From positions 8,418-72,417 of the forward strand of contig CALWBL010000008.1 of NCBI GenBank assembly GCA_944376065.1: a DNA stretch of 64,000 bases, read 5' to 3'. Position numbers and translations under genes: made by a program. Each line of letters opens with the position of its first letter. Position 1 is the stretch's first letter. This DNA is from an uncultured Butyricicoccus sp. (GTDB taxonomy: Bacteria > Bacillota > Clostridia > Oscillospirales > Butyricicoccaceae). This document shows, in pieces, positions 14,995-57,801 of this stretch. Below the pieces are notes generated by a model that made no database searches, was not told the DNA's origin, and saw only the letters and a list, made by a program, of their open reading frames with translations.

Positions 14995-15071
14995 GGCGGT
15001 ATAGCTTAGTTGGCTAGAGCGTTCGGTTCATACCCGAAAGGTCATTGGTTCAAGTCCGATTACCGCTACCA
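14995..15071 (+). tRNA. tRNA-Met (CAT), elongator type
   Basis: Cloverleaf GGCGGTA...TTCGG-TTCATAC-CCGAA...TTCAAGT...TACCGCT ACCA. It has a G1 acceptor pair and lacks the GGG/CCC anticodon stem of initiator tRNA. Confidence 0.92.
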
Positions 15072-15074
15072 TTT

Positions 15075-15149
15075 GGCCCGTTGGTCAAGCGGCTAAGACA
15101 CCGCCCTTTCACGGCGGTAACACGGGTTCGATTCCCGTACGGGTCACCA
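15075..15149 (+). tRNA. tRNA-Glu (TTC)
   Basis: GGCCCGTTGGTCAAGCGG...CCGCC-CTTTCAC-GGCGG...TTCGATT...GGGTCACCA. Confidence 0.95.
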
Positions 15150-15152
15150 TTT

Positions 15153-15228
15153 GGAAGTTTAGCTCAGCTGGGAGAGCATCTGCCTTACAAGCAGAGGGTC
15201 AGCGGTTCGAGCCCGTTAACTTCCACCA
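15153..15228 (+). tRNA. tRNA-Val (TAC)
   Basis: GGAAGTTTAGCTCAGCTGGGAGAGC...TCTGC-CTTACAA-GCAGA...TTCGAGC...AACTTCCACCA. Confidence 0.95.
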
Positions 15229-21534: not shown

Positions 21535-21867
21535 CAAGACCTGCAAAAAGGCAGGCAAAATGCGATGATATCGGAGATTGCTGACATGTGTCAGGTAACT
21601 TCGATGGAGTAGGTCCGACAATCGGGCGGTTGAGACAACTGCTTATTGTAAAACGTCAATGTTCTTGCGTAAATTCGGGACTTTTGGCAGCTTTGCCAAA
21701 AAGCCGATGGCACGAACCTCCTGCGTTATTTTGACCGGATTTTTCACAGACAGTGTGCCGGTTATTTTCATGCCCGTAGGCGATACGCCGGGCGGGGTTG
21801 CAGTATCTCTCCGTAACGAGTCGACACATTTTTAAATGTACGACATGTACGAGGAGGAAAAACCAAA
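21535..21867 (+). promoter_or_regulatory. Long structured 5' leader of rpsJ (candidate r-protein leader RNA)
   Basis: About 330 nt with no convincing ORF and many short GC-rich hairpins. Confidence 0.55.
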
Positions 21868-27931: not shown

Positions 27932-28474
27932 ATGCCTAGATTAAAGGATAAATATGAAGCAGAAGCTCGTCCTGCTCTGATGAAGAAGTTCGAGTATAAG
28001 AGCCCAATGCAGATTCCACAGCTTGATAAGATTGTTATCAACGTTGGTTGTGGCAAGGAAGCAAACGGCAATGCAAAGGTTATCGAAGCTGTTGTTCGTG
28101 ACCTGACTGCTATTACTGGTCAGAAGCCAGTTGTTACTCAGGCTAAGAAGTCTGTTGCTAACTTTAAGCTCCGTGAAGGTATGCCAGTAGGTGCGAAGGT
28201 TACTCTTCGTTCCGACCGTATGTGGGAGTTCCTAGACCGTCTGTTCAACGTGGCTCTGCCTCGTGTGCGTGACTTCCGTGGTATTTCTGCTAACTCTTTC
28301 GACGGCCGCGGCAACTATGCTTTCGGTCTGAAAGAGCAGCTGATTTTCCCAGAAATCGAGTATGACCAGATTGATAAGATTCGTGGTATGGATATCATCA
28401 TCTGTACTACTGCTAAAACTGATGAAGAAGCTCGTGAGCTGCTCACCATTATGGGCGCTCCATTTGCTAAGTAA
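27932..28474 (+). CDS. rplE: 50S ribosomal protein L5
   Basis: [16 protein letters not shown] and LPRVRDFRG. Confidence 0.98.
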
Positions 28475-28491: not shown

Positions 28492-28677
28492 ATGGCTAAG
28501 AAGGCAATGGTACTCAAGCAGCAGAAGACTCCTAAGTTCTCTACTCGTCAGTACAATCGTTGTAAAATTTGCGGTCGTCCACACGCTTATCTGCGTGATT
28601 TTGGTATCTGCCGTATCTGTTTCCGTGAGCTGGCTTATAAGGGTCAGATTCCAGGTGTTCGTAAGGCTTCCTGGTAA
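28492..28677 (+). CDS. rpsZ: 30S ribosomal protein S14, Zn-binding type Z
   Basis: 61 aa with CKICGR...CRIC and the GVRKASW end. Confidence 0.97.
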
Positions 28678-28687
28678 AAGGAAAAAT

Positions 28688-28719
28688 AAAAAGAGAGTGC
28701 TTTTTGCACTCTCTTTTTT
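28688..28719 (+). terminator. Intrinsic terminator immediately after rpsZ, inside the spc operon
   Basis: Perfect 13-bp stem AAAAAGAGAGTGC / GCACTCTCTTTTT with a U-tract. Confidence 0.8.
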
Positions 28720-28754
28720 GTATAAAATCTCAGAAAGATTTTTGTAAAAAACAC

Positions 28755-28784
28755 TTGAAATGTATATATTATATGTGATATAAT
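28755..28784 (+). promoter_or_regulatory. sigma-A promoter P1 (extended -10)
   Basis: TTGAAA-18 nt-TATAAT with TG at -15/-14. Confidence 0.7.
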
Positions 28785-28989
28785 ATATAATAGTTACGCA
28801 TGAGTGTGACATATTCCGCAAAACGCATGGTGAGCGTTTTTTGCGAAGTCTTTCGTTGGCCATTACCCGATAGTTTCGGCGTGGTCTTTGAAATGAAGGA
28901 AACACGGCCGACCTGCCGTAATATCAAGGCTTTTAGCAAAATAACCGCAAAATTAAACGATTCTGTACAAAAATCAGTAGTTTTTTATA

Positions 28990-29018
28990 TTGCGGATATT
29001 GGTTTGTCATGATATAAT
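28990..29018 (+). promoter_or_regulatory. sigma-A promoter P2 (extended -10) for the rpsH-distal spc genes
   Basis: TTGCGG-17 nt-TATAAT with TG at -15/-14. Confidence 0.6.
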
Positions 29019-29021
29019 TAC

Positions 29022-29056
29022 CGCTGGTCTGATGTGTTTCAGGCCAGCGATTTTTT
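29022..29056 (+). terminator. Intrinsic terminator-like hairpin
   Basis: CGCTGGTCTGA / TCAGGCCAGCG 11-bp stem followed by ATTTTTT. Confidence 0.65.
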
Positions 29057-29096
29057 AACTTCACAACCCGCTGTGAAAGGGTCACGGCGGTGTAGT

Positions 29097-29152
29097 AAGA
29101 AAAGTGGACGGCAACCCGACGGCGTTCCGTCACGAAGTACCGTCAAACTTCT
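29097..29152 (+). promoter_or_regulatory. Candidate S8-binding leader (16S helix 21 mimic)
   Basis: AAGTG-GACGG ... CCGTC-AAACTT pairing, directly 5' of the rpsH SD. Confidence 0.45.
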
Positions 29153-29169
29153 GAAAGGAGCAAGAAAGA

Positions 29170-29568
29170 ATGCAGATCACAGATCCAATTGCAGATATGT
29201 TGACCCGTATCCGCAACGCAGCTGCTGCTCGTCACGACTCTGTTGACGTTCCAGCATCTAAGATGAAGAAGTCCATCGCTCAAATTCTTCTTGACGAGGG
29301 CTACATCAAGAATTTCCAAATCGTAGACAATGGCAATCAGGGCATTATCCGTATCGCTCTGAAGTATGGTGCAAACCGCCAAAAGGCTATCACCGGCTTA
29401 AAGCGTGTTTCTAAGCCAGGTCTGCGTGTATACGCAGGTGCTCAGGAGCTTCCTAAGGTTCTTAGAGGACTTGGTATTGCAATTATTTCAACTTCCAAGG
29501 GCGTAATGACCGACAAGAAAGCTCGTGAGCTGAATGTTGGTGGCGAAGTCCTGGCATTCGTATGGTAA
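29170..29568 (+). CDS. rpsH: 30S ribosomal protein S8
   Basis: [23 protein letters not shown] and ISTSKGVMT. Confidence 0.98.
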
Positions 29569-50975: not shown

Positions 50976-51749
50976 ATGAATCGCAGATATCGTAAGACGA
51001 TTATCGCTGGTAACTGGAAGATGAACAAGACACCTAGCGAAGCTAAGGCTCTTATTGAAGAAATGAAGGGCATGCTTTCCAAGACAAAGTGGTGTGAAGT
51101 TGTTCTTTGTGTTCCATTCACCGATATTCAGGCAGCAGTAAAGGCTGCTAAGGGCTCTAAGATTGCAATTGGTGCAGAAAATATGCACTTTGAGAAGTCT
51201 GGTGCTTTTACTGGTGAAATTTCTGCTGATATGTTAAAGGAACTGGGCGTTAAATATGTTATCATTGGTCATTCTGAGCGTCGTCAGTACTTCAACGAAA
51301 CAGATGAGACTTGCAACAAGAAGGTAAAGGTTGCAATCGAAAATGGTCTGCGTCCAATTCTGTGTGTAGGTGAAAGCCTTGCAGAGCGTGAGCAGGATGT
51401 TACTATGGAAGTTATCCGCAAGCAGGTTAAGATTGCTCTGCAGGGCGTGACCGTTGATGATATTAAGAAGGTTGTTATCGCTTACGAGCCAATCTGGGCT
51501 ATCGGTACAGGCAAGACCGCAACTAGCGAGCAGGCTGGTGAGGTTTGTGCAAAGATTCGTGATTGCCTGCGTGAGCTGTATGGTGCTCGTGCAGCTCGTG
51601 CAATCACTATTCAGTATGGCGGTTCTATGAATGCTAAGAATGCAGCTGAGCTGCTTGCACAGCCAGATGTAGATGGCGGTCTTATTGGTGGTGCTTCCCT
51701 AAAGGCTCCAGATTTTGCAGCAATCGTAGAGGCAGCAAATCAGAACTAA
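50976..51749 (+). CDS. tpiA: Triosephosphate isomerase
   Basis: [25 protein letters not shown] and GLIGGASL. Confidence 0.98.
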
Positions 51750-57725: not shown

Positions 57726-57801
57726 GGTCGAGGTGACAGGATTTGAACCTGCGGCGTCTTCGTCCCGAACGAAGTGCTCTACCAAGCTGAGCCACACCTC
57801 G
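57725..57801 (-). tRNA. tRNA-Pro (CGG)
   Basis: Reverse complement CGAGGTGTGGCTCAGCTTGGTAGAGCA-CTTCG-TTCGGGA-CGAAG...GTTCAAATCC...CACCTCGACCA. Confidence 0.93.

Follow-up and report, generated by a model that had tools for sequence, protein, structure and literature searches.

A conserved, structured leader directly upstream of rpsH in Butyricicoccus and its relatives, probably a new S8 leader

Autogenous control of the spc genes by ribosomal protein S8 is a textbook case, and the S8 operator of the Escherichia coli spc operon, reportedly described by Cerretti (1988) and Merianos (2004), is said to lie at the start of rplE. The S8-binding RNA at rplE is reported only from gamma-proteobacteria (Fu et al. 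2013, PMC3616713), a 2024 review gives the regulation of spc as unknown in Bacillus subtilis and other species outside E. coli and Vibrio (PMC10931766), and an S8 leader is absent from the ribosomal-protein leaders of Eckert & Weinberg 2020 (PMC7247131). Here we analyze a stretch of 64,000 nucleotides (nt) from an uncultured Butyricicoccus sp. (hereafter the window), which carries an S10-spc-type ribosomal-protein cluster, and focus on the 110 nt directly upstream of rpsH, the S8 gene, on the plus strand (29060-29169). A sequence-only reading had proposed that this segment mimics helix 21 (h21) of 16S ribosomal RNA (rRNA) and that S8 regulates its own synthesis through it. The leader is a real, conserved, structured feature; it is probably a new S8 leader with a plausible mechanism, and the likeliest reading is a new leader family that responds to S8 and would work much as in E. 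coli while differing in gene, polarity, phylum and architecture.

The window leader and the E. coli operator would share a helix in the messenger RNA (mRNA) with an h21-mimic loop (an A-(A-U) triple, a G-C pair and a bulged A-N-A), a variable distal stem, a location next to a ribosome-binding site (RBS) in the spc cluster and, presumably, the logic of S8 feedback. They differ in that the leader precedes rpsH with the start codon outside the helix, whereas the E. coli structure overlaps the rplE start codon, and in that the leader belongs to a unit with its own promoter in a host from the Clostridia (Oscillospirales). The leader has the polarity of rRNA, AAGU belonging to its 5′ strand and AAACU to its 3′ strand; in the permuted E. 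coli operator, AAACU lies at +7 to +11 of the 5′ strand and AAGU at +80 to +83 of the 3′ strand.

Searches of Rfam 15 with the window region, at gathering and permissive thresholds, turned up nothing relevant, and ten representative rpsH leaders gave no match at E ≤ 0.1; no family explains the window leader or matches the class-B leaders described below. Homology to the gamma-proteobacterial S8 operator was likewise not indicated by any Rfam match of the window leader (whether Rfam 15 includes that operator was not checked). Full-text literature searches yielded no further account of an S8 leader at rpsH. The sole prior trace is HMP2_4246, an automated candidate RNA of about 58-62 nt located directly upstream of rpsH, with 34 human-microbiome instances, expressed in stool RNA-seq and left without interpretation in that paper (Fremin & Bhatt 2021, PMC8040213, Tables S4/S5). 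HMP2_4246 may be one of the rpsH leaders described here.

The leader is made up of the following elements.

29068-29090, plus strand: hairpin P0, with stem 29068-29076/29082-29090 and pentaloop AAGGG at 29077-81 (consensus AARGG); four pairs changed on both sides; predicted by RNAalifold
29098-29111, plus strand: 5′ strand of the S8-like helix, comprising AGA 29098-100, the bulge AA 29101-02, A29103, G29104, U29105, G29106 and GACGG 29107-11
29112-29139, plus strand: distal part, an internal loop CAACCC / ACGAAGUA plus the hairpin GACGG-CGUU-CCGUC 29118-31
29140-29152, plus strand: 3′ strand of the S8-like helix, comprising CCGUC 29140-44, AAA 29145-47, C29148, U29149 and UCU 29150-52
29154-29172, plus strand: RBS of rpsH, with the Shine-Dalgarno sequence (SD) AAAGGAG 29154-60 (GGAG 29157-60) and the start codon 29170-72

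A check against the sequence bore out the letters and coordinates of the two arms first proposed for the helix, AAGTGGACGG at 29102-29111 and CCGTCAAACTT at 29140-29150, and the positions of the inner hairpin GACGG-CGTT-CCGTC (29118-29131), the hairpin at 29068-29090 and the SD. Beyond these arms the helix gains three outer pairs (A29098-U29152, G29099-C29151 and A29100-U29150); because AGA 29098-100 pairs with UCU 29150-52, the two extra-helical A's are A29101 and A29102. The distance from the end of the helix to GGAG is 4 nt in the window and about 3-10 nt in relatives, and CUUCU (29148-52), at the 3′ end of the helix, is also complementary to the SD. The pair that closes the P0 loop varies (GC in 8, AU in 5 and GU in 1), and the distal hairpin covaries within Butyricicoccus (GACGG/CCGUC, GGGGG/CCUCC, GUGGG/CCCAC). 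The GGCAA...UACC of the distal loop is kept in most Butyricicoccus, Agathobaculum and Intestinibacillus sequences but not in L004 (individual loci carry L numbers).

An alternative fold with two components had also been suggested for the same segment. The one that uses the duplicated GACGG/CCGTC copies is not conserved and cannot form in L001, L002, L003 and L005. The other pairs GAAGT (29134-38) with ACTTC (29147-51), whose letters and positions are as claimed; the resulting GAAGU/ACUUC hairpin is confined to Butyricicoccus and absent from other relatives. The minimum-energy fold of the window, in which GUUCC 29124-28 hides the SD, likewise lacks conservation and was rejected.

In E. coli the S8 site lies in h21 (588-651), with its core at 595-598/640-644; we verified this numbering on the real 16S sequence (A595 A596 G597 U598 C599 ... 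G639 A640 U641 A642 C643 U644). The S8 core of h21 is characterized by the triples A595-(A596-U644) and (G597-C643)-N641, an invariant A642 and an odd-numbered loop, while the 596-644 pair is naturally variable (Thermus has G595-(C596-G644)), as is position 641 (PMC4176348). In the window, A29102 is equivalent to A595, and A29103, G29104, U29105 and G29106 to 596, 597, 598 and 599; in the canonical register, AAA 29145-47 corresponds to 640-642, C29148 to 643 and U29149 to 644. The window sequence, [A]A-A-G-U-G / C-A-A-A-C-U, matches every core letter in this register, with A at 641. Position 641 is also A in Bacillus-type 16S rRNA. As in h21, the loop is flanked by helices on both sides, here regular ones (outer 3-4 base pairs (bp), inner 5 bp) with a variable distal insert, and the pairs A29103-U29149 and G29104-C29148 are accompanied on the 5′ side by the unpaired A29102 (plus A29101). 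These pairs and the A595 equivalent are invariant in 13 distinct relatives, save for A595 in L033 and L057. The 599-639 pair is G-C in the window, unlike the C-G of E. coli.

The register is ambiguous around U29105, which faces A29145-47 in the window and which RNAalifold, at position 598, pairs with the last A instead. The register with one bulged G that had been put forward is feasible but is only one among two or three; another has a G.A, G.U or A-U pair at 599-639 together with a loop one base short, and L134 (A599 with U) needs this second register.

On the single sequence alone, the h21 likeness is not significant. The single-sequence fold z-score of the leader is -2.3, and a relaxed h21-type descriptor had 30 matches in 128 kilobases (kb; window, both strands). 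One of them, an AAGU...UACU chance match at 51190-51295 in the coding region of triose-phosphate isomerase (tpiA; UUGA-GA-AG-UCUGG ... CAG-UA-CU-UCAA), shows the false-positive rate of the bare motif. The evidence above chance is comparative, and consists of conservation with compensation in 16 relatives, the fold predicted by RNAalifold and the matches of a class-A covariance model (R2), which fall solely upstream of rpsH.

We collected 80 species-representative loci of relatives via the S8 protein, 73 of which have rpsZ on the same piece. Their sequences upstream of rpsH show two architectures: class A, the window's kind, occurs in Butyricicoccus, Agathobaculum, Intestinibacillus and some uncultured lineages, and class B is the leader type in most relatives. 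The S8-like helix and the P0 hairpin are kept in 16 distinct relatives, and the class-A consensus reads P0, linker, AGA-[A W]-AG-U-R, a 5-bp helix, an insert of 5 to 102 nt, the 3′ helix strand, W-AA-CU-UCU, 3-9 nt and AGGAG. In the full alignment of 14 species, 7 of the 19 pairs change on both sides, the covariation score is reached by none of 500 shuffles, and the share of paired cells falls from 89% to 40-54% in slid controls. From the MAFFT alignment alone, RNAalifold arrives at P0 as well as at these outer and inner helices.

Within 13 distinct class-A core sequences, neither the four central pairs nor the loop shows any variation; these sequences were chosen by their conserved 5′ and 3′ core letters, so that the set is free of bias in the flanks alone. 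Compensatory changes affect three inner-helix pairs, and the two outermost pairs occur as AU/GU/UG and as AU/CG/UA/GU, the latter unpaired in 6 of the 13. Such an invariant core with covarying flanks is the pattern that would be expected of a protein site. Across 439 kb of related loci (both strands), R2 matched only directly upstream of rpsH. Among members outside its training set, L155, L098 and L153 were strong, L015, L033, L057, L134 and L108/L158 had E = 1.5e-5 to 5e-3, and L139 had E = 0.31; the window leader scores 96 bits, as a training sequence. The alignments therefore bear out the conservation of the AAGU / (A/U)AACU core and, together with RNAalifold, the compensatory changes in the helices on which the original proposal depended. 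The leader thus combines what generally marks ribosomal-protein leaders, namely a conserved covarying structure in an intergenic region adjoining the RBS of a ribosomal-protein gene.

Class B and several more distant lineages carry h21-type cores at the same junction.

L009-L080 (for example L023 at about 1890-1950, L041, L009 and L051): class B, core 49-59 nt before the rpsH ATG
L190, 2467-2433, minus strand of the locus: minimal mimic, GGUUAU-A-AG-UCGGCC CGGA GGCCGA-UA-CU-GUAACC
L199, 3101-3139: h21-type hairpin, 4 nt before GGAGG
L162, 1428-1397: h21-type motif, about 67 nt upstream of the ATG

Class B, hosted by Oscillospiraceae (Oscillibacter, Dysosmobacter, Lawsonibacter, Flavonifractor, Faecousia and others), has the layout P1-[N A]-GG-(U/C)-P2...P2′-(A/G)-[N A]-CC-P1′, followed by hairpin P3, UAACUYCU and the SD. 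Of 64 class-B leaders, 45 match a strict h21 descriptor, versus about 2% of other 150-nt windows, shuffles and tiles of the window. In a curated set of 34 distinct class-B sequences, compensatory changes occur at 11 of 14 pairs and the 598-640 pair is U-A in 17 and C-G in 17, while no change is seen in the A-U pair, A595 (the 3′ bulge base), GG/CC or A642. The core of Faecousia-type leaders, AAGUC...GAUAC-C, departs from the E. coli letters by a C at 644.

Class B resembles the window leader in lying at the rpsZ-rpsH junction, in the same order, with an h21-like loop and a UAACUYCU-type 3′ tail followed by the SD. It differs in that its S8-like core is a separate upstream domain followed by P3, and in having G596-C644 where the window leader has A-U. 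The strict (class-B) descriptor has no match in the window, and the class-A and class-B covariance models give no cross-matches. Because the class-B covariance model (R1) has no match in the window leader, class A is a family in its own right and stands outside class B; we rejected the notion of class A as a diverged class B at the model level for the same reason. From the shared letters G(N)GAAAGG(G)UCA, the window P0 may be a relic of the class-B P1 stem. A pseudoknot between the P0 loop AAAGG and UACC 29138-41, which would recreate a class-B-type core, was also rejected, its flanking strands being non-complementary in the window and in L006.

L190, L199 and L162 come from unrelated metagenomic lineages outside the order, with S8 proteins 55-69% identical. 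The L190 mimic (S8 57% identical) equals the E. coli core letter for letter and abuts the GAGGAGG of rpsH, and L190 and L199 share the window layout, with the helix abutting the SD. These minimal hairpins suggest repeated invention of S8 operators at this junction, and class B, L190 and L199 would make S8 the natural ligand at rpsH.

The window itself encodes a canonical S8, with the Ser-Thr-Ser RNA-contact motif and the conserved Tyr kept. Its best solved relative is the Bacillus anthracis S8-RNA complex (4PDB, E = 7.5e-55), and the nearest S8 genes belong to Butyricicoccus species (93-98% amino-acid identity). Overall, S8 is rather likely to be the ligand of the window helix. The model that we favor in full, with odds slightly better than even, is that the roughly 110 nt before rpsH act in cis as a leader through which S8 represses by means of the helix that ends next to the SD. 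The unit would be transcribed from its own promoter at 28990-29018, because the terminator after rpsZ cuts the operon. The helix internal loop, with 5′ [A]-A-G-U and 3′ A-A-A-C-U, would imitate the S8 site of h21, the distal insert being dispensable. S8 in excess over free 16S rRNA would bind this helix and, standing next to the SD, would hinder 30S initiation at rpsH by steric competition or trapping; translation of S8 would drop, and coupling or mRNA decay would pass the reduction on to the spc genes downstream. In the simplest model, S8 bound beside the SD would occlude or trap the 30S subunit, as the layout of L190 and L199 likewise suggests.

Several observations weigh against this model. 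When the S8-like helix is forced, the predicted accessibility of the SD goes up in 11 of 11 leaders (for example from 0.20 to 0.73 in L007), and in several relatives the minimum-energy fold pairs CUUCU with the SD, within 0.2-4.8 kcal/mol of the fold with the S8 helix. Given this modelling, the sign of regulation is not self-evident: since the forced helix exposes the SD, S8 could not repress here by sequestering the SD, and would have to act through its bulk or through a toggle of other logic. The 3′ motif UAACUYCU is also present in class B after P3, and because it occurs there with no AAGU partner its conservation may have another cause, such as an anti-SD function. The four central pairs of the class-A core never vary, so they lend no covariation support. 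As for the likeness to h21, the window leader has a second bulged A (29101) and, depending on the register, a G that bulges out after the first pair of the distal helix or else a 3′ loop that lacks one base; U stands at the first loop base (640) in 8 of the 16 distinct relatives and at position 595 in two (L033 and L057), and R1, run over the whole window with filters off, gave no leader match at E ≤ 10.

The SD observations could be read as an SD/anti-SD toggle that works independently of protein or under some other control, in which CUUCU is an anti-SD inherited from class B, AGAAAAG is the anti-anti-SD and the h21 likeness is partly coincidental; S8, if it bound at all, would then expose the SD. 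All class-B groups place UAACUYCU after a hairpin and before the SD, in groups B1 and B2 the RNAalifold prediction joins CUCU/CUUC to GGAG, CUUCU is paired with the SD region at minimum energy in L006, L007, L008, L015 and L033, and the rise in unpaired-SD probability on forcing the outer helix fits as well. We nevertheless regard such a toggle as unlikely, because the 5′ strand, AGA-AW-AGU-R, keeps both its letters and its exact complementarity from genus to genus, with bulged h21 A's that a plain anti-anti-SD does not need. In addition, the h21 mimic of L190 and L199 adjoins the SD in the absence of an anti-SD tract, and positive feedback by S8 makes no homeostatic sense. A spacing to the SD of just 2-3 nt, as seen in L004, L139 and the Butyricicoccus group, leaves marginal room for a hairpin; in L004, where a compensatory U.G replaces A-U at the outer pair and so preserves the outer helix, CUUCG lies 2 nt from the SD, too short for the rival hairpin.

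Butyricicoccaceae keep the sequence of P0 and of the internal loop, features that S8 mimicry leaves unexplained, and it is common for a ribosomal-protein leader to be recognized by a protein other than the first one encoded. A different regulator from a downstream or neighboring gene (L6, L18, S5, L30, L15, L5 or S14) might read another conserved part, such as the AARGG pentaloop of P0 or the GGCAA/UACC loop. Both of these are lost in the distant class-A members L015, L033, L057, L108, L134 and L139, with which only the outer helix and its h21-like loop are held in common, and class B, L190 and L199 point specifically to S8, which makes another protein a poor prospect. We give a similarly small chance to a structural spacer that exerts no feedback and serves mRNA stability or processing, or insulates the split-off transcription unit. 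A terminator, a new promoter and a 5′ hairpin do mark a split of the operon at this point, and 5′ structures commonly stabilize Firmicutes mRNAs, but a stabilizer needs no invariant asymmetric loop with h21 letters, and class B keeps a leader of at least 121 nt even where the rpsZ-rpsH gap is 121-140 nt, apparently too short for a terminator plus a promoter.

Repression by S8 through the SD-adjacent helix can also be combined with the anti-SD complementarity. In this tentative extension, which we hold possible though on balance doubtful, three or more non-homologous architectures (class A, class B and the L190/L199/L162 hairpins) would have re-evolved the h21 core, S8 feedback would be widespread, and the class-A 3′ strand would double as an anti-SD in a three-state switch (SD sequestered, SD free, S8-bound). 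If S8 repression holds, these leaders would provide Firmicutes/Clostridia, a clade dominant in animal guts, with their first S8 operator candidates; several independent architectures would make it testable how rRNA mimicry is re-invented, and the tolerance of S8 for deviation from the h21 core would become testable as well. The covariance models R1 and R2 can be used to annotate these genomes.

The genes and signals around the leader are as follows.

27932-28474, plus strand: rplE
28492-28677, plus strand: rpsZ (Zn-type S14)
28688-28719, plus strand: intrinsic terminator after rpsZ, with stem 28692-28700/28706-28714 and U-run 28715-19
28755-84: consensus-like promoter
28990-29018, plus strand: conserved promoter for the rpsH-onward unit, with -35 TTGCGG 28990-95, a 17-nt spacer and extended -10 TGaTATAAT 29010-18
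29022-29057, plus strand: terminator-like hairpin and U-run, 11 bp with 7 GC; the stem covaries and the U-run is conserved in six species
29170-29568, plus strand: rpsH (S8, 132 amino acids), ATG at 29170-72
From 29584, plus strand: rplF

The rpsZ-rpsH intergenic stretch is 492 nt in the window, the leader being its last 110 nt. The gap is at least 121 nt in all 73 Oscillospirales species in which it could be measured (median 203); a further 70 S8 loci that are unrelated, taken from a metagenome scan anchored solely on the S8 N-terminal coding sequence, have a median of 21 nt.

The S10-spc operon is physically split after rpsZ in this clade, since a strong terminator follows rpsZ and rpsZ was not found upstream of rpsH in five relatives. 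The DNA examined in the latter respect was that of L001, L002 (382 nt only), L003, L005 and L007. The A-run upstream of the rpsZ terminator gives it a bidirectional look, and the upstream part of the S10-spc cluster ends there. The promoter at 28990-29018 follows the pattern TTGnnG-17-TGnTATAAT, with TTG..G and TG.TATAATT invariant in a six-species alignment; a simple promoter scan omitted it, its -35 matching at 3 of 6 positions only. L001 shares the promoter module, and its upstream genes are unrelated, among them an open reading frame (ORF) for an XRE-type helix-turn-helix protein (L001 1-2000). The separate promoter that the sequence-only reading had assumed for rpsH onward is therefore borne out by its conservation in six species, the strong rpsZ terminator and the unrelated genes upstream in L001, and a separately promoted, putative rpsH-onward unit is well supported in class A. 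The class-B leader lies within a short spacer, apparently internal to the operon.

The transcript is predicted to start at about 29023-29027 and hence at or inside the terminator-like hairpin, because the extended -10 promoter directly precedes it. This hairpin may act as an insulator against upstream read-through, as a 5′ stabilizer or as an attenuator. Contigs from gut metatranscriptomes cross this hairpin, extending without a break from about 28820 across the leader and into rpsH; they demonstrate transcription through the leader but cannot place its 5′ end, and the 'FL-cDNA' runs behave DNA-like. No RNA contig spanned about 28657-28810 in four metatranscriptomes.

A further conserved structured element, without a match in Rfam, occupies 28855-28925, some 250-310 nt before rpsH; Butyricicoccus (L001 among them) and Agathobaculum butyriciproducens share it. 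It consists of a stem GGCCA.../...UGGUC enclosing a covarying CCGR-loop-YCGG hairpin, after which comes a near-invariant hairpin, ACGGCCGACCUGCCGU. Its G.U pairs suggest that it is formed on the plus strand; its second hairpin is terminator-like if read on the minus strand. The 70-amino-acid ORF at 28800-29012 had weak tblastn matches only (42% over 57 amino acids in L007 and 65% over 20 amino acids in L002), and conservation across this interval looks structural more than coding.

Long spacers also occur among the unrelated loci, 18 of 70 having at least 80 nt. In L146, L138, L084 and L082 (87-101 nt) and in L199 (72 nt), GCGAAG..GAAAGG(A/G)C stands right after the rpsN stop codon, and these long-spacer lineages may represent further leader classes. 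The letters GAAAGG recur in class-A P0 loops and in class-B 5′ strands.

Elsewhere in the window, tRNA genes lie at 14995-15225 and 57728-57801, and the window carries no rRNA. The Rfam S10-Clostridia leader RF03136 is found at 21557-21638, upstream of the S10 cluster, with 39.5 bits against a gathering threshold of 35.1; like the rpsH leader, it is a conserved structured 5′ region of a ribosomal-protein unit in Clostridia.

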